Notes: generated from the sequence alone by a model not told the origin. A DNA stretch of 64,000 bases from Dictyostelium discoideum (GCA_000004695.1 CM000151.3:6112001-6176000); one strand, 5' to 3'. Shown: positions 10,711-59,999, counted from the first letter of the stretch. Numbers and translations: made by a program.

Positions 10711-11588
10711 TCCAACCCAAACAACAAAGGTAAGCATAATTTTTATATGCCCAAAAAAAAAAAAAAAAAAAAAAAAAAAATAAAAGGTATCCAGGGGAAT
10801 TTAAATGATGATCAAAATATATTTGCTATTCTTAGTTATTTATCAATCATGCTGAATGGAAATTTCTGATTTAATCCTCCCTTCATACCTTTATTGGGCC
10901 AATATTTAAATATTCTTTAAATATAATAATACTAATATTTTTCTTTTGAATTATTTAGGTTTTTTTTTTCTCTGATAACAATCCTTGAAATATTTCACAC
11001 TGACAAATGAATTTATTAAATAAAAAAAAAATTTAGTTTTATAAAAAAAAAAAAAGGTTTTCGTGTTTATGATATTTTTTTATTTTTTTTATTTATTTTT
11101 TATTTTTGACTACTTTGTATAATAATTTATTTTATTTCATTTTTTTCTATTTTTAGATTTTTTAAATAATAATTTTTTTTTTTTTTTTTTTTTTTTATAG
11201 AAAAAGAAAATTATTTGATGACTGTATACATATGCAAACAGGCGATATTTAAAAAACAAGAATGGAATTTGGTATCATCACACTTTTTAATTTGTTTTTT
11301 TTTTAATTTTTTTTTAATTTCGACCATCGTTTTTATTTTTATTTTTTTTTTTTTATTTTTTTTTTTATTTTTTTGTGTTTTTCTTGTACAGTCATTCATA
11401 TTAAAAAAATAAAAAATAAAAAATAAAGAAAAACAAAACTATTATACAAATTCGAAACATATCGATAATACAACATAAAACAAATTACCTTTTTTAATTT
11501 TTTTTAATTTTTTTTAATTTTTTTTTTTTTTTTTTATTATTTTTGGAAACTTAAAAATAGTTTATTGCTAATAGTAAAAATATTAATA

Positions 11589-13076
11589 ATGGAGGCATTA
11601 AATAACCCTATGTCAGCACCATTTTTTTCATTTGTGGTTAAAGTAATAGGAATATGGATTATATTTTTTGGAATTTTAAAATTAATTTATGTAGGTATTA
11701 TTAATTATTTATTTTTTATTTATTATTATTTTTAATTAAAATTAATTTTAAAATGAAAATATATATATATATAAATAAATAGATAAAATATAAAGATCAA
11801 ATTGATATAGATGGATTTTTAGAAAGAACAAATTTAAGTGTTCAATTATTTTATATTGGTTTTTCAACGACTAGATTAAATTCAATGATTAAATCAATTT
11901 CGAATGGAAGATATGAAAGATTTTGGTATTATTGGTTTAAAATTGGAAGTTGGGTATCATTATCATTGTTACCACTTTCAATTGGATTATTGATTTATAA
12001 TCTTTTCATTATTTTCATTAAACCTACTGGTATTGAACCAGTTATTAGTCCAATTGTACCGGGTGTTAATGTGAAAGGTTCAGATTCTTGGTATCTAATA
12101 ATTTCAGTATTAATAAGTATGATCATTCATGAATTAGGTCATGCAATTGCATCCTATGTTTCAAAATGTGAAATTAATAGTATAGGTTTCTTCTTTTTAT
12201 TTATAATGCCTGGTGCTTCTGTAAATTTAGATTATGTAAGTAAAATTCATTATTATTTAAATAAAAATAAAAAAATAAAATAAATTAAAAACTAAAACTA
12301 AATAATTAAATAATTAAATAGATTGAATTAGATAAAATTAGTTTATGGCAAAAATTAAGAATTCAGTGTGGTGGTGTTTGGCATAATGTTGTTTTATGTA
12401 TTATTGGTTATTTATTATTATCTTCATCATCATTTTTATTATCACCATTATATAAAATTTCAAATGATAAATTATATATTACTGGTATACCGAATGTAAA
12501 TATTATAATTATTATTATTATTATTAATATTTTATTATTATTATTATTTTAATATATTTATTTTTTTTTTTTAATAGGGATCATTATTAGAAAGAAATTT
12601 AAATATTGGTGATCAAATTTTATCAATTAATGATTGTAAAATTAGTAATAGGAGTGATCTTGTAGAATGTATATATAAAGAATTGGATAAGACTAGATCA
12701 TATTGTATTTCACAAAATACTATAACATGTTTAGAGAATGTTTTTAATAATAATAATAATAATAACACAAATGTAAATTTAAGTAATGCAAATAATAAAA
12801 AAATTAATTTAATAAATCAAATTGATAATGATAAACGATTAAGAGAATGTTTTGGAATTAATGATGCGACAACTTTGGTTGAATGTGTACCTGTTAGTAT
12901 TGATTCCCCATCAGAGTGTGCAAAATCAAAAAAAGAGTGTATCAATTTCAATCAATTCAATTACCATATATTTCATCTTAATTTATTAAGTCAAGATTTT
13001 GATAATGTTGAACAATTATCATTTTTAGGTACTGCTCAACAATTATGGGATTCTTGTAAGTATAATTAAATTAAAC

Positions 13077-15228: not shown

Positions 15229-15302
15229 GTTCGGATGGTGTAGTCGGTTATCACGAATCCTTAACACGGATTAGGTCGTGGGTTCGATTCCCGCTCTGAA
15301 TA
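15229..15302 (+). tRNA. tRNA-Val(AAC): tRNA-Val (anticodon AAC)
   Basis: Cloverleaf reads GTTCGGA TG GTGT AGTCGGTTATC ACG AATCC TTAACAC GGATT AGGTC GTGGG TTCGATT CCCGC TCTGAAT A. D-loop and anticodon loop are near-identical to eukaryotic tRNA-Val(AAC). The T-loop B box is GGTTCGATTCC. Confidence 0.9.
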
Positions 15303-15369
15303 CAAACTAATGCTTTTATAAAAAAAAATTCTCAATTTGAGTGTGTTCGAGTAAAAAAGAAAAAATGAA

Positions 15370-15755: not shown

Positions 15756-18700
15756 AAGTAGTAGTAATCATAATATAACCAAAAATATCAACATATAACA
15801 ATATAAAAATTTAAAAATTTAAAAATCTAAAAATTTAAAAATGTAATAAAATATAACAATACACCGCTTTTAGGTAAAAAAAAAAAAAAAATAAACTTAA
15901 AGGTGAACTCAACTTAGGCGAAGAAGAGTTAATAAAAAAACTATTCAAATAAGGTTATTCTACCCACATACCTTGGAATTAAATAGTAATTAAACAAAAT
16001 TAATAGATAATTTCATAGTTAATGGTACTCTTAACATTGTCAGAAGACAAAAGGGTATAACAGTATTCGGTAGAATACTAAAAGAAAAATTCACATTATT
16101 ACACGAGTGTTACAGCACTTTCAAGTATGAAGATTTCCCACTGCAAAAATTCATACTTTACACCCCAGGATATCACTATGTCCACTTTTACACATTTACA
16201 AAAAACATAATAAAAAAAATAAACAATCAAATGGTAAAAGAAAACTGGGGATTGGAGCCATTACTAATAGATGAATGCAACATAGTAATGCTACCAGATG
16301 TGATTAGATATTCATGCATACTATAATTTAATAAAGAAGATGATATCTCAATCATTAAAACAAACATTGATGCTATAAAAGGTAGTAAGCATCCAATAAG
16401 AGCCTTCATCTCTGAATATAACAATAAAGAAATAAGAGATGTTAGAAAAAAAAAAAACACAAGTAATAAAAACCAACAACCAACAACTACAAATACAACT
16501 AAATCAATACCATCAACTCCACCAACAACTAATGCATCAACAACCACACCAATAACAACCACACCAATAACAACCACACAAACAACAACCACACCAACAA
16601 CAACCACACATCAATTACCAACAAGCAATACAACAATCTACAACCTAAACAAAACTACTACTACTACTACTACTACTACAAAACCTATCAATAAAATTAC
16701 TACAAGCAATGGTACCAAGTTTCCAATTGCCAGTAGTATTAGAAAATAATGGAACAATTAAAATTATTACTATGGAACTGCAGAGGTAATCAATCAACCA
16801 ACGCTAAGAATAAAACAGAAGAAACGATAAAAAGAATTGGCACTCAATTAGCACTCCTAACTGAAACTAATTTCAATGGATTCAACCACCACAAAACAAT
16901 GTTCAACTTTGAAAGAATAGATCATGGTTCAGGTAAAGGAACTGGCATAGCAATAGAAAATAGAGATACAAGAAAAGGCCACATATCAATAAACTTCAAA
17001 GACGATGATGGTAGAATACTATCAATTAAATACAATTCCTTTAATTCTATCAACATATTATTGATCTATGCTCCAGCGACTATATCTGAAAGAAACACCT
17101 TCATAATCAACTCAAAATCACTGTTTAAAAAATATAATTCAATCAACCATCAAATAATAGCAGGCGACTTCAATAACAACCACGATTGCAACAGCTTCTT
17201 CGGTACTGAATTACGTAAAATAATAGACCAAGACATGCTACTAGATACTGGTATTGAAGAAAACACTCCAACATTTCCAAGATCAATGAAGAGACTAGAT
17301 AGAATCTACTGTCATCCAACACTACTAAACCAAAATTCAAAACTGGTAGTCCACAACACAGTATTTAACAAATCAGATCACTTTCCCATCACAATCACAA
17401 TACAAACCAACAGAGAAACAGCAACAACAACAACAACCAAACTAGAAAGACTCCCTTGGACATTATGTAAAGAAATTCTCAACAACAAACATATACATGA
17501 TGGGTTATCAGAATTAATCAGTAAGAACAAAGATAAGATCAAATCAGTGGAGGAATGGACGAAATTTAAAAATAATGTCATCAGAGATTATTTAAAAAAA
17601 GAACAAAACAAAATAAAGAAAGAAAAGAACAAAAGAAAATACGTAATCCACAAATTACTTGGAAATAGTGATATCATTCCAAAGATGAGAAAAGAACTCA
17701 ATGAAGAAATAAGTAGAATATTAGAAGAAGAAAGAAAGGTAAAAGCATGGGATATCAAATTAAAACTCCACCTGCATCAAGAAACACCAAGCAAATACCT
17801 CACAAGTATCCTTAAATCCAGAGCCAAAGATAAATCAATATTCCAAATAAAAGATAAAGATAATAAGACCATATCAGATAAAGAGAACATAGCAAAAAGA
17901 TTTGTTGAATTCTATCAAGATCAATATGAAGAGAAAGAAGATAACGAAGAAACCCACAAGAAGTTATTAGAAAAATGGGAAGTAGACGTTGATTTAATCA
18001 AGAAACTCGAGATAGACAGACCGATAAGAATACATGAAGTGACCAAAGCAATCAAAACTTCAAGTATCCACAAATCTCCAGGTTTAGACGGTATCAATGC
18101 ACTATTCTACAAGTACCACATCAACTCAATAGCAAGAATATTGACTATAGCTTTCAACGACCTCCTCACAAATAAGAAAGAAATCCCCACAAAATTCAAA
18201 GAAGGAGTAATAACAACAATATTCAAAAAAGGAGATGAACTAAACATTTCAAATAGAAGACCAATCACCCTTCTCAATACAGATTACAAAATTTTAAGCA
18301 AAATTCTCAACAGTAGATTATTAGATATCACCAGTAAAATTATCAACAAATTTCAAAACGGCTTTGTTCCAAACAGGTTCATCCAAGACAATATTCAGAT
18401 CATGAAGGAAGTAATAGAAATAAGTAACAAAAGAAAGAACAATACACTCATTACCTTTTACGATTTTAACAAAGCATTCGATTCAATCAGCCACAAGAGT
18501 ATCACAAGAACATTAGAGCATATTGGTATCCCCCCAAAATTCACAGCGATCCTACTAAACCTACTCAAAGATACTAAAAACAAAATAAAGATCAACGAAT
18601 TTTTAGTCAATGGAATAACAATCAGAAGAGGAACAAAACAAGGAGACCCAATATCACCAACAATCTTTGCTCTAGTTTTAGAACCACTTCTAATATATAT

Positions 18701-19658
18701 CATCAATGATAATACAATCAAAGGCTTCACTTTACCAAATTCCAAATCATTAAAACTCACTGCATTTGCTGACGACATAGCAACATTTACAAACTCCACT
18801 GAAGAACTAATGAAAATTAATACTAAAATCCAAAAGTACTGCTCAGCAACATCATCATCGTTAAACAAAGAGAAAACAGTAATGATAGCAATAGGAGATA
18901 AACCACACGATCTACCATTCCAAGAGAGTACAGTCCCAGAAAGATATCTTGGCCTCAATTTCACCAAAACAGGTTTAAATTCAAAATACAACACTTTAAT
19001 CCAAGAAATGAAAAACAATCTAATCAAATGGAAATCACAAGCAATAACGATGAAGGCAAAGATGACAATTCTCAAAACATACGTTCTATCCAAATTAACA
19101 TACCATCAATACATGGATAATCTAAATGAAGAACAAATTGAGGAAATCAATAACATGACCAGATGGTTCTTATTCTCCTCAGTTAAGAATACATATACAG
19201 AAGAGAGAAAATACAAAACTATGATGAAAATAGACAGAGCATATGCAGATTGGAAAGAAGGAGGCATAAAATTATGGGATATAGAACTAAGACATATAGC
19301 ATTCAAAATCTGGTACATGAACAGGCTACTCCATAACAACTACAACAACAACAACAATACCTTACAAGAATGGTACATGGAGCAATTAAGTAGAAAAAAA
19401 GCCCCCACTTCAACCCTCAACGATATGTACAGACACTGGGGTGTATTCAGAGTCAAATTTTACCAAAACCATCCAAAGATAAATGAACATAGAAACAGAA
19501 TTACTAAATCTCATCGAAACTGAAAAATTCATCACACTAAAGAAAATCAAACACGACGAAGCAATACTAAAAAACACCAATCAAGATCTTCACAAATACA
19601 AATTCAACAAAGCCTGGCAAACCCCAGCAGCTCCGAACCCTCTTCCAATTTAAGTAGT

Positions 19659-20327: not shown

Positions 20328-20399
20328 TCCTTGTTGGTCTAGTGGTGAGGATTTTCGCCTGTCACGCGAAAGGCCCGGGTTCAATTCCCGGACAGGGAG
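20328..20399 (+). tRNA. tRNA-Asp(GTC): tRNA-Asp (anticodon GTC)
   Basis: TCCTTGTTGGTCTAGTGGTGAGGATTTTCGCCTGTCACGCGAAAGGCCCGGGTTCAATTCCCGGACAGGGAG. Near-identical to the canonical eukaryotic tRNA-Asp(GUC). Followed by a C and a T6 Pol III terminator. Confidence 0.9.
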
Positions 20400-20452
20400 C
20401 TTTTTTGGAAGATTTCAAAATTCCTTGTTAAATTTTATATTAACCAATTCCG

Positions 20453-21996: not shown

Positions 21997-24900
21997 GAAA
22001 TAAACGAGAATTTATACATATAAAAAATAAATCACTGTTATATCTTCAGTATGTTGCGTTTAAAAGTTACATTATAACATATCATCTAATTGATCACACA
22101 CACAACATTGTTGATCAAAAGATCGAACAACCATCTGGTATCACAAGATATATCAAAGCTGCAACACGTAGTGTCACTAAACACAAAATTCAACATGCAA
22201 AAAATGCAGATATGGCAACAACTATAAAAAATGCTATCACAAACCCAAACATGAACAAAAACAATCAACCACCAAAAAACAACATTAACACCCCACCAAT
22301 CAACGAAATTGCAAATTCCAATCGCAATAATAACCCACTTCAAAATAGTGGTTCAAAAGCTACACTAAATGAATCACTTGATATTACCAATCAATCCCAA
22401 AACAATAATGAAATATCACACAAAAGTTATTCTCCAAATAATAATAACGGGAAAAACTCATTATCAATGAGCAATCCAACCGATCCAACAATTGTACCAC
22501 AAAAACCTCTACAATCTCAACCAAACAAACCAAGTGCATCAACCCCAAATACAATAAATACAAGAAGAAGCAGCAATGCCCTGACTACACAACCAGTCAA
22601 TACTGGTGCTACCAAACCTAGTAAGGTATGAGCTCAAAAATCAACTTTATAACATGGAATTGTAAAGGATTCACTGAAAACCCAAACAATCAACACAATT
22701 CCTACCAAAAAGCTGTTGACACACTACAACTACTTATATCAAAACTTCCACCTCGTCCAACAATCTCAATACTCACTGAACTCAATTCATCACCATTACA
22801 ACTTAAACATGATTTTCCCGATCACATCATCTCTGTCACCAAACGAGGAAATGGTGTAATCATCATTAACCATAACCCAAACTCACTCAAACTCAAACAC
22901 ATATCAACAATTGATGGTAGAGCTATTTTAGCAGACGTTATATTTCCAAATCAATTACCAATTGGTATTCTTGGAATTTACGCACCAGTATCAAATAATA
23001 CCATCAAAAAGAATTCATATGCAACTTCACTACAAACACTTCTCCACAACCACTCAACAAACCCAATACCAAACCAATCCCAACATGTATCTATTATCTC
23101 AGGAGATTTCAACTGTATCCACAACGACAATTCACTATTAGATGATATTATCCAATCCTACACATACCAACACCATCTAATTGATCAAGGTGAATTTAAA
23201 AACACTCCAACTCATACACATGGTAACAGATTAGATAGAATATATACTCAATACAATAGAATAGACCCTGAAAATATATATACTCAAGTCCACCAAATTC
23301 CATCTTCATTATCAGATCATAATCCAATATCAACAACAATTTCTTCACCTTTTCAAATAAATAAACATAAGAAAAGATGGATATTATCACCTGGTACTAT
23401 AAATGACCATGAAGCAATCAATATTATCAATCATTTAATAACTAATCACAATAACACATCAATCAATCAATTTACAAACTGGTCAAAAGTAAAATCAAAA
23501 ATTATTAAAACTCTAAAAAACTATCAATATAACAAAGACAAACAAACCCAACGTGCAAAACAAATACTATTAGAAAAAGCAGCAAAATTCAAACATCTTG
23601 AAGAACAATGCATCGCCGAATACAATATTATATGTAACAAAAACAAATTACATCAAAACCACACAAACATATTAAAAAAACATATAAATGGAGAAATACC
23701 TAGCAAGTATCTATCAGCAATACTAAACAAAAGATCAAAAGATGCAAAAATTGAATCAATCCAATATGGTAACATCATTACATCCGACCCCGACCAAATT
23801 GAAAATGCATTTGTTGAATTCTACACAAATCTATATAGCTTACAAATATGTTGTCCAATTACTCACCAGCTCATGCTAAACACATGGTCCATCATAAAAA
23901 ATGAATATTGGAATGGTTTAGACTCACCATTTATACAAGATGAAGTTGAAGCTGCAATTAAAACCTGTTACCCCAACAAATCACCCGGTCCAGATGGCGT
24001 TACAAATGCATTCTACATTAATCATTTAAACCAAGTTAAACCAATTCTCACTGCATTATTCAACGATATACTAGAAAATCCTCACCACATCACAACAGAA
24101 TTCACCGAAGGTCTTATACACACAATATACAAGAAAGGCAACCCCTTACTCATATCAAATCGTCGTCCCATTACACTTCTAAACACTGATTACAAGATCC
24201 TCTCAAAAGTAATCAATGCACGTCTTCTGAGAATACTTCCTTTCATCATCAATAACAACCAAACTGGTTTCGTACCCCACAGATTCATCATAGACAACAT
24301 CATCAACATCAATGAATTAATCAACTACCTCAAATCTAAAAACCTCCCTGGTATCATCACACTATTTGACTTCTTTAAAGCATTTGATTCTATCTCTCAC
24401 GATAGTATTAAAAGAACATTAATTCATATGGTATACCAATAAAATTAATAAATTTAATCCACAAGCTATTATCTGACTTACAAGCAAAAATTTCAATTAA
24501 TGGTAAAACAACCAGAAAATTCGATATTAAAATAGGTGTAAAACAAGGTGACCCAATCTCAGCCACTTTATTTGTAATTGTAATTGAAATATTAGCAAGA
24601 ACAATAAATGCAGACAATTCAATAATTGGTTTACCAATTTCACCCAATCCACAAATTAAAATCAAATTTACCCAATTTGCAGACGACTCTACAACATACA
24701 ACATCAACTACGAACAACAACAACAATCAATCAAACATTTCGATAATTTCTGCGCTTCAACATCATCATCATTAAATTTTGACAAAAGTGCAATAATAGA
24801 AATCAACCCCCACAAAATCACTGATAAACACATAATAAACAATATTCCACAATCAAAAAGAATACCAATAACCAAAAAAGATCAATCAGAAAGAGTCCTT

Positions 24901-26579: not shown

Positions 26580-27717
26580 GGGATCATTTGTAAAAAATTT
26601 GTTAAATTACAAATAAGAATAATTGGAATAATTAAAAAAAAAAAAAAAAAAAAAAAAAAGGGATTTGATTTAATATTCTTAAAAAAGAAAAAAAAAAAGT
26701 ATAAATTAAAATTTATTTTTAATTTTTTTTTTTTTCATTACACCATTAAATCTTGTTTATTTGTGAATATAAAAAATTATTTTAATTAATCCTTTCACCA
26801 GTAGTACTCTTATTTTTATTTATTTATTATTTTTATTATTATTTCTCAATCAAATAATTTATAAAAAAAAAAAAAAAAAACCTAAATATTTAATTAAGAA
26901 TTCTTTTTATTTATTATTTTTATTATTATTTCTCTATCAAATAATTTTAAAAAAAATACTCTTTAAATTAATAATTATGATTAAAAAAAGAATTTTTTTT
27001 CCCGCACCCCTTTACCATTTTCTTATTTTAGATATTTCCAGATTTGGAAATTTTCTTTTTGGTTATTGGATTTTACTTAAAATAGAAAATTATTTTTTTT
27101 ATTTCCAAATAATTCAAAAAAATTGAAAAATGATCGAGTATAAATAAGAGTTTTTTGAAAAAAAAAAAAAAATAATCATTTATACAAATGTAAAAAAAAA
27201 ATAATAAAGAGAATAAAAATCTAACTCTAACAATTTAAAAGGTTTAGATAATAGTTGATTGACAGTTAAAAATATAAAAAAAGGTAAAGCCATAAAAAAT
27301 GAAAAATAAATAAATAACAATTTAAATCTAACTTTTATATTATATTTTATAGTAATTTTAGACAATAAAAATGGTTAAAATTCAATTATAATCTAGATAA
27401 TATAATATATGAATCACTACCAATCGAATGATAGAGAAAGGAAAGATTTATCTATGCACTATATCATAAAGAAAGGTTGATCATCATCTAAAAATTATTT
27501 CTAAACAAATAAAATGAATCAATTCAAATCAAATGTCAGAGAAAGGAAAGATTTATCTATGCACTAAGGCATTTTGAAAAGAAGATGATATAAATAAAAA
27601 ATTAGAAATCAAAAAAAACTAAAAATAAATTAAAACCAATAATAAAATTAAAAAGGTTTAATATATTTTAAAATTAAATTTTTTTTAATAATTTAAATTA
27701 TAAGATAAGCTACTTTT

Positions 27718-28764
27718 TTATTTAATTTTTCCAAATGTTTTAATTAACAAATCATTAGACTTTAAAAAATTAGTTTTAAAATCTTGAGAAATTGCAGTGA
27801 AAAATTGATGATTACAATTGTCATTATTTTCTTTTGAAAGTTTTTTAATATCTTTTTCAACTGGTATTAATGAAAAAATAAAAGGTGATATTTCAACCAA
27901 AACAATTGGTCTATTTACATTTAAACAACTATTAGTTTCATAGATTTGATTTGTTACTTTACCTAGATTAACTGGAGAACGAGCAATATGAAAAAGAAAT
28001 TCTGCATTAAAATCTTGAGTTTTCTTATTATATAATTTTGCAGTTGAACATGATATATTTGGAATTTCAGGTTCAAATGATTGAAATGATAATTGTTTAA
28101 AATCATTTTCAACTGGATCGATATCTGATGTATGAAAATTAATTAAACCTTCAATACAATGAAATCGGATTTCATTTTTAGATAAATAACAAATTAATTG
28201 ATCGATTTCATTTTGATCACCAGCCACCAATATTAAATCATAGCATAAACAACCACAAATTTGAATTGATGGATAATTTGGTTTAATAAAATCCCAATAA
28301 TAATCTTCAGGTTTTTTAATGGATATTATTTTCTTTATTGTTTTATTTTCAAGTTTTGTCATTAAACATGCTCTTTTATGGGAAATGAAACAAGCGGTTT
28401 CCAAATCGATTAAACCTGAACAATAAGCTGAAGCAATCTCTCCTAAACTCATACCAACTATTTGATCTGGTTTTACACCATAATGTTTATAAAGTTTAAA
28501 AATTGAAACTTGAAACATAAATGATATACAATGAATAAAATGTTGTTCTAGAAATGAATCACTATCATTCTCTTTAAGATTTTTATATTTATCAAACATT
28601 GAATATCCATAATATTTTTCATTAAAAATATTATCAATTTCCATTATCGTTGATTTAAAATTATTTCCATTTTCAAATAATTCTAATGGTATTTTATTTT
28701 TAAATGAACCTTGACCAGAAAATATAAATACTAAATATGGTTTTGTTATTTTATTTTCTTCCAT
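27718..28764 (-). CDS. Stand-alone acyltransferase (malonyl-CoA:ACP transacylase / PKS AT-domain-like) protein A, 348 aa
   Basis: FIFSGQGS (GQG oxyanion motif), GMSLGE (GxSxG nucleophile elbow), ...FHTSDID (AFHS-type His motif). Paralogous to the B and C genes in this window. Confidence 0.75.
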   Translation of the reverse strand: MEENKITKPYLVFIFSGQGSFKNKIPLELFENGNNFKSTIMEIDNIFNEKYYGYSMFDKYKNLKENDSDSFLEQHFIHCISFMFQVSIFKLYKHYGVKPDQIVGMSLGEIASAYCSGLIDLETACFISHKRACLMTKLENKTIKKIISIKKPEDYYWDFIKPNYPSIQICGCLCYDLILVAGDQNEIDQLICYLSKNEIRFHCIEGLINFHTSDIDPVENDFKQLSFQSFEPEIPNISCSTAKLYNKKTQDFNAEFLFHIARSPVNLGKVTNQIYETNSCLNVNRPIVLVEISPFIFSLIPVEKDIKKLSKENNDNCNHQFFTAISQDFKTNFLKSNDLLIKTFGKIK

Positions 28765-29359
28765 TTAAAATTTTAATTATTATTATATTTATATTAAGTA
28801 TGTCTGTGTGTTTATGTAAGTGAAAAAAAATAAAAAAAAAATAAAAAAAAATAAAAATAAAAATAAAAATAAAAATAAAAATAAAAAATAAAAATAATAA
28901 AAAATAAAAATAAACACAACGTAATGTAATAAAAAAAAAAAAAAATTACAAGTCAAAAGTAATAATTAAAATTAATAAAATTTAATTCATTATTTTAAAA
29001 ATAAAATAATTATAAAAATTAATGAATCTGTTTTAAAAAATATCTAGATATCTTATTATTATTTACTTATTATTGTTTTTCCCAATGGGAATTTCTTTAG
29101 GTTAATAGAAGAAATTCTATTTAAATATAATAAAAATAGAACAAAACTGTTTTTTAAAAAAAAAAAAAAAAAAGAGATGATTTTCTAAAGATTTTTTTAT
29201 TTTCTTTTTGCTTCATAAAAAAAACAAAAAAATTCTTTTTAAGATATTTTTCTCATTTTCTTTTTTTATTTTTATTTTTTTTTTTTACTTTTTGATTAAT
29301 TTTTTTTTTTTTTTCCTAAACCGTAATTTTATTTGAAAGTGAAAAAAAAAAAAAAAAAA

Positions 29360-30516
29360 ATGATTTCAGGTATTGAAGAAGATATAAAAGAAAAACCATT
29401 TGTTGTGTTTTTTTTTTCAGGTCAAGGTGGAATTCATAATAAATTAGCAGTCGAATTATATGAAAAAGAACCAGTTTTTAAGAAATGGACTGATGATATT
29501 GATAATATTTTAAAAGAGAAATATTATGGATATTCGATGATTGAAAAATTAAAATCAATAAACGATGATGATAGAGAAGCATTATATGATCAACATCTTG
29601 CTCATTCAATTTTATTTATATTACAAATTTCATTATTTAAATTATATAAACATTATGATGTAACTCCTGATATAATTTATGGTTTAAGGTATTATTTAAT
29701 TTGAAAAAATATAATAAAAATAATAATACTTTTTTTTTTATTTTAAATTTTATATTAATTAATATAATATTTAATAATTATTATTTTAGTTTAGGTGAGA
29801 TTGCATCATCATATTGTTCTGGAATGATTGATTTAGAAACAGCATGTTTTGTTTTATATTCAAGAGCAGTATCAATTAATAAAACATTTAAAGAATATGA
29901 TAGAACATTGGTATCAGTTGATATTTCAGAAGAAAATTTCAATTCAAAATATAGTTTAAAATTCCCATCAATTGAAATTGCTTGTAAAATTCATGCTCAT
30001 ACCATTACATTGGGTGGGAAAATTACAGATATTAATCAACTATTTGAATTGTTTGATATTGATAATGTCAGTTATAAAAGATTACCAATTGCATCAAGTT
30101 TTCACACTTCTTCTATGGAATCTATTAGGGAAGAAATTCTTAATTTATCATTCGATTATTCTCAACCTACTATTACTCATTTTTCAACAGTAACTTGTAA
30201 ACCATTTGATATCAAAACCCAACCATTTAATTCATTTTATCTTTATAATAATATTCGTGAGCCATGTCTATTGGAAGAATCAACAAAAAATATTTATTTA
30301 TTTCATTTAAATAATAATAATTTAAATTATGATAATAATAACAATAATTATAAAAATAATGAATATAATTATGACAATATTGATAAATTAACAAATCAAA
30401 AAAAATATAACCAATCAAAAAAACCAATATTTATAATAGAAATATCTGCGCAATACTCTTTAATTTATTTTATTGAGAAAACAATATATGAATTATCAAT
30501 CAAATATAATGATAAA

Positions 30517-30559
<43 letters not shown>

Positions 30560-30663
30560 TTAATAATAATAAATTTTTATCTACCTTGTATAGAGACAAA
30601 AATGGAGATTTAAATACATTTAAAAATGTAATATCAAATATTAAAGAGGTTTACAAAAACTAA
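29360..30663 (+). CDS. Stand-alone AT-domain protein B. 2 exons: join(29360..29688,29790..30663), 400 aa, with an N/Y-rich low-complexity C-terminal insert
   Basis: FFFSGQGG. The GTATTA donor at 29689 and TTTTAG acceptor at 29789 restore G-LSLGE-IASSYCSGMIDLETACF across the intron. SSFHTSSMESI. Confidence 0.75.
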
Positions 30664-31297
30664 TAATTATATTAAGTTTTGACAACAGCCACACAGAAGG
30701 AGAGATAGGCAGATACAGAAGCAGAGAGAGAGAAGATTATGGGTTATTTTGGGTAGAAGGGATAGAGGGGGTAGAAATTTTAATATTACTGGGCTATTCA
30801 TTAATAAAAAAAAAAAAATAAAAAATTTGTTATGTTTTAAAAATTATTTTTAATTTGTCAGTGTTTTTAAACAGATTTTTTAAAAAATAAAAACAATATC
30901 ACTGATATCAGTGGTTCATTAAAAAAAAAAAAAAAATTTTTTTTTTTTTTTAATTTTTAATCTAAAAAGATTAAATAGTGGGAATTTATTGTATTTTTTG
31001 ATTTTTTTATTTAAATTTATTATTTTAAAAATATATTTAATAAATCTTTTTTTTAAAATTTTAAATTATCATTTTTTATTTTTATTTTTTTTTTTTTTTT
31101 TTTAATTTTTATACTTGCACATAAAAAAAACAAAATAAAATAAAATTAAATTTAATCTTCATTAATTAATTTATTTAATTAACAAGTAAAGAAATAAAAA
31201 AAATAACAAGTAAGAAAAAAAAAAAAATTCAATCATCATATAAAAAAAAAAAAATTCTAACATATCAAAAATAATTATAATAAATTTTAAAAAAATT

Positions 31298-32350
31298 ATG
31301 GAAGAAATTTTATTTCCAACCAAATCACCACATATTACATTTATGTTTACTGGTCAAGGATGTTGTTTTCCAAAAATGGGTCTTGGTTTATATAATAGTG
31401 AACCAATATTTAAAGAATGGATTGATAGAATTGATGAAATTTTAAAATCAAAATATTATGGTTATTCAATGTTTGAAAAAATTAATTCAATTGATGAAAA
31501 AGATCAAGATGGATTAAACAATCAACATTTATCACATTCTGCTTTATTCATGTTTGAAGTTTCTCTATGTAAATTATTAAATTATTATGGTTTACATCCA
31601 AATTTAATAATTGGTATAAGTTTGGGTGAAATCGCATCAGCATTTTGTTCTGGTATGATTGATTTAGAGACATCATGTTTTTTAACCTATAAAAGGGCAT
31701 TCTCAATTGAAAAAACCATTAATGGTGATAGTACATTAATTATAGTTGCAATTTCTGAAAATGAATTTTTAAATAATTATTCATTGAAATATACAAATAT
31801 TGAAATTGCAAGTAACCTTACATCATCATCATTATTAGTGGGTGGTAAAAAAAATGATTTACTTTCATTTTGTCAAGAATTAAAAGAAAAGAAAATATTT
31901 TTCGCTCAAACCTCATTACCAACTTCATTTCATACATCAAGTATGGAACCAATTAAAAATGATATAATTCAATTAACAATTAATAATCAGTCACCTAAAA
32001 TCACTCATTTATCAAGTGTGAATTGTAAATTCTTTAATGGATATGATAACCAATTCAATTCAACTTATCTTTATTATAATATTCGTAATCAAGTTTCATT
32101 AGCTCCAACTGTAAAAGTAATGTGTAATTATTTCGATCAAATGAATTCATTTGATTTTTATCATCATAAAAATATAGTGATTGAAATTTCACCCCATAAT
32201 GCATTATTTCAACATGTTCAAAGAACAATTGATACAATTCAAAATTTTCAAAGTAAAAAAAATACTTTTTTCTTTGCTCCATTATCTAAAGGTAAAAATG
32301 AAGTTATAAATTTAAAAAAAATGATTTTAAAAATTAATAGTTTAAATTAA
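31298..32350 (+). CDS. Stand-alone AT-domain protein C, 350 aa, single exon
   Basis: FMFTGQGCCFPKMG, GISLGEIASAFCSGMIDLETSCF, PTSFHTSSMEPI. About 45-55% identical to A and B. Confidence 0.75.
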   Translation: MEEILFPTKSPHITFMFTGQGCCFPKMGLGLYNSEPIFKEWIDRIDEILKSKYYGYSMFEKINSIDEKDQDGLNNQHLSHSALFMFEVSLCKLLNYYGLHPNLIIGISLGEIASAFCSGMIDLETSCFLTYKRAFSIEKTINGDSTLIIVAISENEFLNNYSLKYTNIEIASNLTSSSLLVGGKKNDLLSFCQELKEKKIFFAQTSLPTSFHTSSMEPIKNDIIQLTINNQSPKITHLSSVNCKFFNGYDNQFNSTYLYYNIRNQVSLAPTVKVMCNYFDQMNSFDFYHHKNIVIEISPHNALFQHVQRTIDTIQNFQSKKNTFFFAPLSKGKNEVINLKKMILKINSLN

Positions 32351-49975: not shown

Positions 49976-50013
49976 AGCGATGTTATAAATCAAGCACAAA
50001 AAAATGTTAGTTG

Positions 50014-50087
50014 TATTCAGAGCGGGAATCGAACCCACGACCTAATCCGTGTTAAGGATTCGTGATAACCGACTACACCATCCGAAC
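50014..50087 (-). tRNA. tRNA-Val(AAC): tRNA-Val (anticodon AAC), second copy in inverted orientation
   Basis: The exact reverse complement of the 15229..15302 gene, including 12 bp of 5' flank. Confidence 0.9.

Positions 50088-53935: not shown

Positions 53936-59999
<6,064 letters not shown>

Follow-up and report, generated by a model that had tools for sequence, protein, structure and literature searches.

Free-standing acyltransferase genes with an unusual active-site signature in Dictyostelium discoideum

Three acyltransferase genes separate from polyketide synthases

The window analysed here, a 64-kb stretch of chromosome 2 of Dictyostelium discoideum AX4 with a G+C content of 21.9%, contains three paralogous genes, which we call A, B, and C, whose products consist solely of an acyltransferase (AT) domain of the kind found in polyketide synthases (PKSs). 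A and B are divergently oriented, and B and C stand in tandem (Table 1). That these are three separate AT-only genes with these positions and strands had been proposed in a first-pass annotation of the sequence, and the open reading frames (ORFs), the Pfam matches, and the existence of separate database proteins all bear this out. Proteins A and C are exact matches to AX4 database entries, and splicing B yields an uninterrupted 400-aa AT, a model that corresponds to a 411-aa protein annotated independently in another strain of D. discoideum (P0013). The B intron does lie at the active-site elbow, as had been noticed, since it interrupts the codon of the catalytic serine, and it has counterparts at the identical position in D. 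citrinum, with a length of 148 nt, and in D. dimigraforme, with 402 nt. The Asn/Tyr-rich low-complexity insert reported for B is likewise present, in the form of two such inserts. The region between A and B is presumed to be a shared promoter region; a blastn search with this A+T-rich sequence returned only noise.

In the AX4 annotation, A is a ‘hypothetical protein’ and C a ‘beta-ketoacyl synthase family protein’, a misnomer for a protein with only an acyltransferase domain inside, while the UniRef label for these proteins is ‘Malonyl-CoA:ACP transacylase (MAT) domain-containing’. The earlier suggestion that they had not been described therefore holds only in part: the genes were already annotated, but searches of the literature and its supplements, based on their identifiers and on the topic of free-standing Dictyostelium ATs, turned up no paper that deals with them.

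When two full-length dictyostelid PKSs were used as tblastn queries, only their AT region (aa ~546-880) matched the window, at the three loci, and no coding sequence for ketosynthase (KS), dehydratase (DH), enoylreductase (ER), ketoreductase (KR), or acyl carrier protein (ACP) domains was found in its 64 kb. It is practically inconceivable that A, B, and C belong as exons to a single larger PKS-like gene, an idea whose sole basis is the existence of homologous AT segments in Dictyostelium PKS genes and in favour of which we found nothing: besides the restriction of the match to the AT region, A runs in the direction opposite to B and C, each gene starts with an ATG of its own just upstream of strand beta1 and ends with its own stop codon, A and C are separate database proteins of ~350 aa and B is modelled as a protein of its own in another strain, and the annotations of two other species likewise treat the orthologues as separate genes.

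Table 1. Positions of the acyltransferase genes, their key residues, and other features. Unless a locus handle is given, positions refer to the window.
Feature	Position	Strand	Description
Gene A (DDB_G0275991 / XP_643360 / Q552M2)	27718-28764	-	ORF, single exon, 348 aa; GQG Gln18, His78 (FabD Gln63 position), GMSLGE with Met105-Ser106, Arg131, Phe210-His211
A, Ser106 codon	28447-28449	-	
A, His211 codon	28132-28134	-	FHTS
A/B intergenic region	28765-29359		595 bp, divergent, extremely A+T-rich (sequence and composition)
Gene B, exon 1	29360-29688	+	aa 1-109 and first two bases of the Ser110 codon; GQG Gln22, His82, Leu109
Gene B, intron	29689-29789	+	101 nt, GT..AG, phase 2; splits the catalytic Ser codon AG/T
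Gene B, exon 2	29790-30663	+	aa 110-400; SLGE (of GLSLGE), Arg135, Phe214-His215
B, His215 codon	30103-30105	+	
B, first Asn/Tyr-rich insert	30325-30360	+	aa 289-300
B, second Asn/Tyr-rich insert	30502-30558	+	aa 348-366
Gene C (XP_643362 / Q552M0)	31298-32350	+	single exon, 350 aa; Gln20, His80, GISLGE with Ile107-Ser108, Arg133, Phe211-His212
C, Ser108 codon	31619-31621	+	
C, Arg133 codon	31694-31696	+	
C, His212 codon	31931-31933	+	
Second tandem trio, D. discoideum	L003 8246-9544, 10001-11263, ~11668-12963		GCA_054859385.1 contig JBTAPF010000017.1; GISCGE/GVSCGE
Canonical stand-alone AT P0173, D. discoideum	L004 10001-11362		453 aa; GQGAQ, Gln63, GHSFGE, Arg
Purine-rich island	30680-30780		73% purine, 44% G+C, GC skew +0.7
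Counterpart of the island, D. citrinum	L001 7934-8083		~70% identical over 135 nt
29-nt direct repeat	27433-27461, 27538-27566		copies 105 bp apart
C/D-box snoRNA DdR17	10802-10871		Rfam RF01567, 101 bits (gathering score 80)
tRNA genes	15229-15303, 20328-20400, 50013-50087		three (Val-AAC twice, Asp-GTC)
Retrotransposon ORFs	16749-19523, 22628-24442		non-LTR; endonuclease and reverse transcriptase
Large ORF	54504-59999	-	1,831 aa, no Pfam match at E<=0.001

Family assignment and fold

All three proteins match the Pfam family Acyl_transf_1 (PF00698), with 77.5 bits (E 1.6e-21) for A, 81.6 bits (E 9.6e-23) for B, and 100.9 bits (E 1.2e-28) for C against a curated cut-off of 32.7 bits, and these matches are not due to chance. 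The FabD profile, the other one proposed for classifying them, gave a negative answer: the scores of the trio for the NCBIfam fabD equivalog (54.2, 56.0, and 76.6 bits) lie below its cut-off of 260.9. None of the three proteins has an N-terminal presequence, the conserved strand beta1 beginning ~10-15 residues from the initial Met, and the low fabD scores together with this lack led us to reject a mitochondrial FabD/MCAT identity.

The best sequence match of C in the PDB is the AT of D. discoideum Pks16 (9NJU, E 1.6e-42, ~30% identity) over residues 539-871, a span that comprises the AT and the post-AT linker, and the second is the Bacillus acyl hydrolase (AH) PksD (8AVZ, E 3e-25). An AlphaFold2 (AF2) model of C built from a 17-sequence family alignment (pLDDT 86.6, pTM 0.86), which superseded one from five sequences (pLDDT 64), contains the two-subdomain AT fold with an alpha/beta-hydrolase-like core and a ferredoxin-like insert. 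In a Foldseek comparison of this model with the PDB, Pks16 (9NJU) again came first (TMq 0.83, root-mean-square deviation 3.2 Å, 352 columns), and the top 50 matches are without exception structures of ATs or AHs. The three proteins thus almost certainly belong to a functional stand-alone AT-fold family. Judging from these sequence matches, the ancestor of this family was probably an AT domain with its post-AT linker in the dictyostelid type I PKS/fatty acid synthase (FAS) lineage, and the family appears to be specific to Dictyostelium.

Orthologues, paralogs, and phylogeny

The three genes, together with a mitochondrial carrier and a Cdc6-like gene, are syntenic in D. citrinum and D. dimigraforme, where their ORFs are intact, and A has orthologues in D. 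citrinum, D. dimigraforme, and D. firmibasis. Pairwise ratios of nonsynonymous to synonymous substitution (dN/dS, Nei-Gojobori NG86) of 0.21-0.34 for A, 0.22 for B, and 0.09-0.11 for C indicate purifying selection on all three; these values and the intact orthologues led us to reject the possibility that they are pseudogenes. An exhaustive HMMER search retrieved 28,875 AT-containing proteins; among the best 150 matches, short proteins made up of an AT domain alone came exclusively from Dictyostelium, the species being D. discoideum, D. citrinum, D. dimigraforme, D. firmibasis, and D. purpureum. A word-indexed protein search with the family alignment was dominated by low-complexity words and missed some query members, and its results are not a taxonomic census.

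D. discoideum possesses a second tandem trio of the same derived type (G[I/V]SCGE), hereafter the D-type genes, on the same contig as A-C and some 30-60 locus tags away, so that its derived paralogs number at least six, in two tandem trios. One copy of the second trio has GQC instead of GQG and the third is annotated without its N-terminus; the trio is flanked by Roc/Ras GTPase, CRAL-TRIO, and MOSC genes. In addition, a single-copy gene on a different contig encodes a stand-alone AT with canonical motifs, P0173, which has counterparts in D. dimigraforme (P0084) and D. purpureum (P0039). P0173 and P0084 carry an N-terminal extension of ~90-100 aa resembling the KS-AT linker of the D. discoideum PKSs (DdPKSs). 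No PKS sequence was found within 10 kb of the second trio or of the P0173 locus, the latter having neither KS nor ACP sequences in that range. As a true malonyl loader acting in trans, P0173, whose motifs are conserved, is the more obvious choice.

Neighbour-joining (NJ) trees based on Poisson distances (300 bootstraps, bipartition counting), with limited sampling and PksD as the only AH sequence, united all dictyostelid ATs in 94% of replicates, the embedded PKS ATs in 92%, the derived stand-alone clade in 74%, the canonical stand-alone ATs in 100%, and all stand-alone ATs in 61%, whereas the derived clade grouped with PksD in only 1%. The contrast between 94% for the dictyostelid ATs and 1% for the derived clade plus PksD suggests an origin of the family within the PKS ATs of dictyostelids. 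For the same reason we rejected horizontal transfer of a bacterial AH, and on this sequence comparison the PksD-like residues of the derived clade are best read as convergent or coincidental. The idea that these proteins derive from an excised PKS AT domain is therefore supported as regards their lineage, but not as a recent event, since the embedded ATs form a clade of their own without stand-alone proteins and the latter are thus not recent excisions from any of the sampled PKSs.

An intact catalytic centre in a remodelled surround

Active-site residues were compared, using FabD numbering, in an alignment of 43 sequences in which the stand-alone proteins were set beside 14 embedded dictyostelid PKS ATs, ten bacterial modular-PKS ATs, PksD, and E. 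coli FabD (a sequence identical to 1MLA). The derived set comprises 16 proteins, namely A, B, and C with their orthologues, the products of the D-type genes, and two D. firmibasis proteins. A, B, and C all keep Gln11, Ser92, Arg117, Phe200, and His201, four of which (Gln11, Ser92, Arg117, and His201) reach an identity of 93% or more across the whole alignment. The Ser-His dyad, assigned from sequence to Ser106/His211 in A, Ser110/His215 in B, and Ser108/His212 in C, is retained in all 16 derived members together with Arg117 (Arg131, Arg135, and Arg133, respectively) and the oxyanion positions (Gln11/Leu93). The GQG motif, an Arg 25 residues after the nucleophile, and FHTS occur in all three proteins, the xFHS motif reading NFHTS in A and SFHTS in B and C. 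The longer motif FHTSSME, first ascribed to all three, is present in B and C, A having FHTSDID instead. The nucleophile is Ser in every case, without the Cys of the GXCXG motif that characterizes the starter-unit ATs (SATs) of non-reducing PKSs.

Around these conserved residues the derived proteins differ from other ATs at a whole series of positions. The replacement of the His that precedes the nucleophile, which the first-pass annotation had singled out, is real and extends across the clade: His91 is Met, Leu, and Ile in A, B, and C, respectively, and Met, Leu, Ile, Val, Phe, Cys, or Ala in the 16 derived members, none of which has His, whereas it is present in all 16 canonical dictyostelid ATs (14 embedded and 2 stand-alone). 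To this we can add Gln63 to His, Pro64 to Ser or Cys, and Asn162 to Leu, Ile, or Cys, each in 16 of 16; Gln14 to Phe, Ile, Cys, or His in 15 of 16 (Phe, Ile, or Cys in the trio); and, in 15 members with the remaining one gapped, Gly130 to a polar or charged residue (Ala in one) and Met132 to Leu or Ile. Positions 163 and 164, next to Asn162, are also off consensus in derived members. By comparison, the 14 sampled embedded dictyostelid ATs all have the His of GH[S/C]xGE, Gln63, and Arg117, and 13 of them Gln14, while Gln63 and Asn162 are conserved in 11 of 11 bacterial comparison sequences. The block formed by Gln14, Gln63, Pro64, and Asn162 had escaped the earlier annotation, as had the second trio and the canonical stand-alone AT.

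Asn160, Asn162, and Gln166 of FabD form the hydrogen-bonding floor of the phosphopantetheine groove, used for both CoA and ACP (bioRxiv 10.1101/2020.05.15.098798). The residues replaced in the derived clade, polar ones of the second shell and of this groove among them, are elsewhere almost universal in ATs. Since the substitutions occur as a clade-wide block, the loss of His91 is one element of a coordinated remodelling, by which the surround of an intact catalytic centre would have been made more hydrophobic.

Unusual motifs also occur in other ATs of the sample. The embedded ATs of P0085 (residues 529-881) and P0150 (residues 383-731) carry Cys instead of Ser at the nucleophile position (GHCFGE and GHCIGE), and in P0150 the catalytic His is, moreover, not preceded by Phe (SCHTS); by their sequences, they look like SAT-like variants inside reducing PKSs. 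The first AT of two modular PKSs, mod_P0015 (residues 534-863) and mod_P0127 (residues 519-802), has GTSMGE, with Thr for His, and keeps Gln14 and Gln63, which shows that AT lineages outside the derived clade can also lose the GHSxG His on their own.

Comparison with known acyltransferases and acyl hydrolases

The closest relative of the trio by both sequence and structure is the AT of the dictyostelid type I PKS/FAS Pks16, which has the same extent, AT plus post-AT linker. The embedded dictyostelid ATs share with the trio motifs of the KYYGYSM/NYFGYSI type and the Ser, His, Arg, and Phe discussed above; in contrast with them, A, B, and C are free-standing, without KS, linker, DH, ER, KR, or ACP, and have Gln14, Gln63, Pro64, His91, and Asn162 replaced. 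P0173, P0084, and P0039 are also free-standing AT-only proteins of the same genus and group with the derived clade in 61% of bootstraps, but they keep the canonical GQGAQ, Gln63, and GHSFGE. Outside the genus, FabD (1MLA/2G2Z) and the trans-ATs PksC and DisD resemble the trio in being AT folds of ~300-350 aa with Gln11, Ser92, Arg117, His201, and the Phe of xFHS. The trio is nevertheless only 14-20% identical to FabD and lacks its GHSxG His, Gln14, Gln63, and Asn162; moreover, discrete trans-ATs serve AT-less synthases from the same gene cluster, and none such is known in Dictyostelium. The label ‘trans-AT-like loader’ initially given to these proteins is thus unsupported, every sampled embedded PKS having a canonical AT and no PKS being found near the loci.

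The AHs PksD (bacillaene, 8AVZ) and PedC (pederin) are, like the trio, stand-alone AT folds with a Ser-His dyad and a Phe before the His. AHs have G(A/S/V)SL in place of GHSL (PMC11775670), so the trio shares with them a residue other than His before the Ser, although its Met, Leu, or Ile is bulkier than the Ala, Ser, or Val of AHs. The GHSxG His has had no function assigned to it, and the PksD variants S98H and S98A showed the chemistry not to depend critically on the residue that precedes the Ser (PMC11775670). By contrast, the variant H71A abolishes hydrolysis (PMC11775670), and PksD His71 aligns with the His that replaces Gln63 in the trio. In AHs Arg117 is changed to Gln or His, the absence of the Arg being considered ‘diagnostic of an AH’ (PMC11775670), whereas it is kept in the trio and in 16 of 16 derived members, Arg133 of C aligning with PksD Gln124. 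Further differences are that PksD keeps the equivalent of Asn162, lost in the trio, and that the derived clade lies outside the AH clade (1% bootstrap in the NJ tree with its one AH), is eukaryotic, and is not in a PKS gene cluster. By its residues, the trio fits neither the canonical ATs, from which it departs at four conserved positions, nor the AHs, from which it departs at the diagnostic Arg.

Possible functions of the derived acyltransferases

With these residues, the three proteins very probably act as enzymes, by way of an acyl-O-Ser intermediate. As for their role, our best candidate, still short of probable, is that they off-load or edit, in trans, acyl chains on the carrier domains of the DdPKSs and FAS. 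A thioester substrate would acylate the equivalent of Ser92, and the acyl group would then be passed to water or another acceptor; chains would be taken off the carrier domains, rather than malonyl units being routinely loaded, and different paralogs may serve different synthases. We favour this role because the synthases have canonical ATs of their own, because the pocket and groove appear more hydrophobic, and because two of the changes match PksD. Since the sampled DdPKSs (the embedded ATs come from 14 dictyostelid PKSs, the DdPKSs totalling 40) all have their own AT and the genome also encodes a canonical stand-alone AT, extender loading in trans has no evident client. The multiplicity of the paralogs (at least six) could match several synthases, which also counts for off-loading.

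Only 21 of the 40 DdPKSs have a C-terminal off-loading domain, a chalcone synthase in two of them and most likely a thioester reductase in the rest (PMC12828403), which leaves 19, by subtraction, without one. Pks16, the main FAS, is described as having no C-terminal off-loading domain, unlike the porcine FAS and the lovastatin PKS (PMC12828403). That the derived ATs of both trios are the missing release or editing enzymes of these ~19 DdPKSs, apparently including Pks16, is a more specific proposal that we regard as distinctly doubtful. If true, they would be an independently evolved eukaryotic counterpart of the bacterial AHs and of the malonyl/palmitoyl transferase (MPT) domain of fungal FAS, derived from an excised PKS AT domain, and the signature of such enzymes would be Gln63 to His, His91 and Asn162 to hydrophobic residues, and Arg117 kept.

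Several observations weigh against a role in off-loading or editing. Arg117 and the Phe of xFHS, invariant in 16 of 16 derived members, are a malonyl-binding signature that excludes alpha-substituted units in known ATs, and the trio does not show the Arg absence held to be diagnostic of AHs (PMC11775670). The likeness to PksD concerns two positions only and, with 1% in the tree, is convergent or coincidental. Loss of the Asn162 floor could end the binding of phosphopantetheine-linked substrates and hence any ACP-directed role, and the notion that positions 14, 63, 91, and 162 line one pocket depends on the published structures of FabD and PksD, by analogy with which it would apply here. No PKS gene was found near the trio in the 64-kb window, or within 10 kb at the orthologous or paralogous loci, and our literature search found no expression, interaction, or biochemical data on the trio.

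With regard to the Arg, fungal FAS offers a precedent: its MPT domain, a Ser-His enzyme with the AT fold, off-loads a long acyl chain from ACP even though the Arg that binds malonyl is kept. It differs from the trio in being an integrated domain with a canonical GHSLGE that transfers to CoA, but this precedent indicates that a kept Arg does not exclude a release function.

The main competing explanation, which we consider somewhat unlikely, is that A, B, and C are trans-acting malonyl transferases of the FabD or trans-AT kind, moving malonyl, as an extender or starter unit, from malonyl-CoA to a carrier protein, be it the ACP of a DdPKS, of a type III/hybrid system, or of the mitochondrial FAS II, with the second-shell changes tuning partner recognition. 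The invariance of Arg117, Phe200-His201, Ser92, and Gln11 agrees with this, as do the UniRef MAT label and the tolerance of PksD to S98H and S98A (PMC11775670). However, the fabD equivalog scores of 54-77 bits are far below the cut-off, the trio groups with PKS ATs and not with FabD, and an N-terminal presequence is lacking. To this must be added that a client is not evident when the sampled DdPKSs all have their own canonical AT, that the canonical stand-alone P0173 is a more obvious trans-loader, and that Gln63 and the groove residue Asn162, kept in the 11 bacterial sequences, are both lost.

An improbable alternative is that the derived proteins are tailoring acyltransferases no longer acting on carrier proteins, with CoA as the donor of an acyl group (malonyl or some other carboxy-acyl may be involved) and a small molecule, a lipid, or a protein as the acceptor. 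This would suit the loss of Asn162 in 16 of 16 and the divergence of positions 163 and 164 alongside a kept dyad and Arg, as well as the absence of linkage to PKS genes, and several diverged paralogs would fit several acceptors. Yet CoA uses the same groove in FabD, so that the Asn162 loss would affect a CoA donor too, the neighbourhood offers no candidate acceptor or pathway, and we know of no AT-fold precedent for a small-molecule acceptor among close relatives.

It is very unlikely, finally, that these proteins are non-enzymatic or decaying, either as PKS fragments on their way to becoming pseudogenes or as dead binding or regulatory proteins. Several near-universal AT residues have indeed been lost, B and the D-type genes contain long stretches of inserted Asn-rich sequence, some strains have copies annotated as truncated (P0168 with 209 aa, P0170 with 233 aa, and P0169 without its N-terminus), and A is the fastest-evolving gene, with dN/dS up to 0.34. 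Against this stand the intact ORFs in D. discoideum, D. citrinum, and D. dimigraforme with dN/dS of 0.09-0.34, the Ser-His dyad, Arg, and oxyanion positions kept in 16 of 16, the conserved synteny and intron position, and a confident AF2 model with a complete AT fold.

Neighbouring genes and other features of the window

The large ORFs surrounding the trio encode two non-long-terminal-repeat (non-LTR) retrotransposon proteins, a mitochondrial carrier, a Cdc6/ORC-like protein, an FNIP-repeat protein, and a MutS homologue. Another neighbouring ORF has no Pfam match (Table 1); its area contains several long overlapping ORFs on both strands, which suggests low-complexity coding sequence. The two retrotransposon ORFs lie 1.4-2.2 kb downstream of the first two of three tRNA genes, a pattern that we take to be typical of the tRNA-gene-targeted TRE elements of Dictyostelium. 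The window also contains the C/D-box small nucleolar RNA (snoRNA) DdR17.

A purine-rich island begins ~17 bp after the stop codon of B, in a spacer that is otherwise around ~10% G+C, and a similar sequence occurs at the same position in D. citrinum. No Rfam family matches the island, nor was any RNA family found within 27.7-32.4 kb; it may be a conserved 3′ untranslated region (3′-UTR) or regulatory element. On the other side of the cluster, an exact 29-nt direct repeat, AGAGAAAGGAAAGATTTATCTATGCACTA, is present in two copies 150-285 bp beyond the 3′ end of A and nowhere else in the window.

Implications for dictyostelid polyketide biology

Although the fold itself is well known, the combination found here, a eukaryotic free-standing family derived from PKS ATs, arranged in tandem arrays, and with a signature unlike that of ATs or AHs, appears to be undescribed. 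Dictyostelium has ~40 giant iterative PKSs, about half of which, by subtraction, have no release domain, and the exit of their products is not addressed in the literature that we consulted; the stand-alone ATs provide concrete candidates for trans-acting partners of these synthases. The family also constitutes a natural experiment in which the GHSxG His, Gln63, and Asn162 have been replaced together while the dyad and Arg were kept. If its members are ordinary malonyl transferases, the replaced residues would be dispensable; if they are hydrolases or off-loaders, they would represent a second, independent route from AT to acyl hydrolase.

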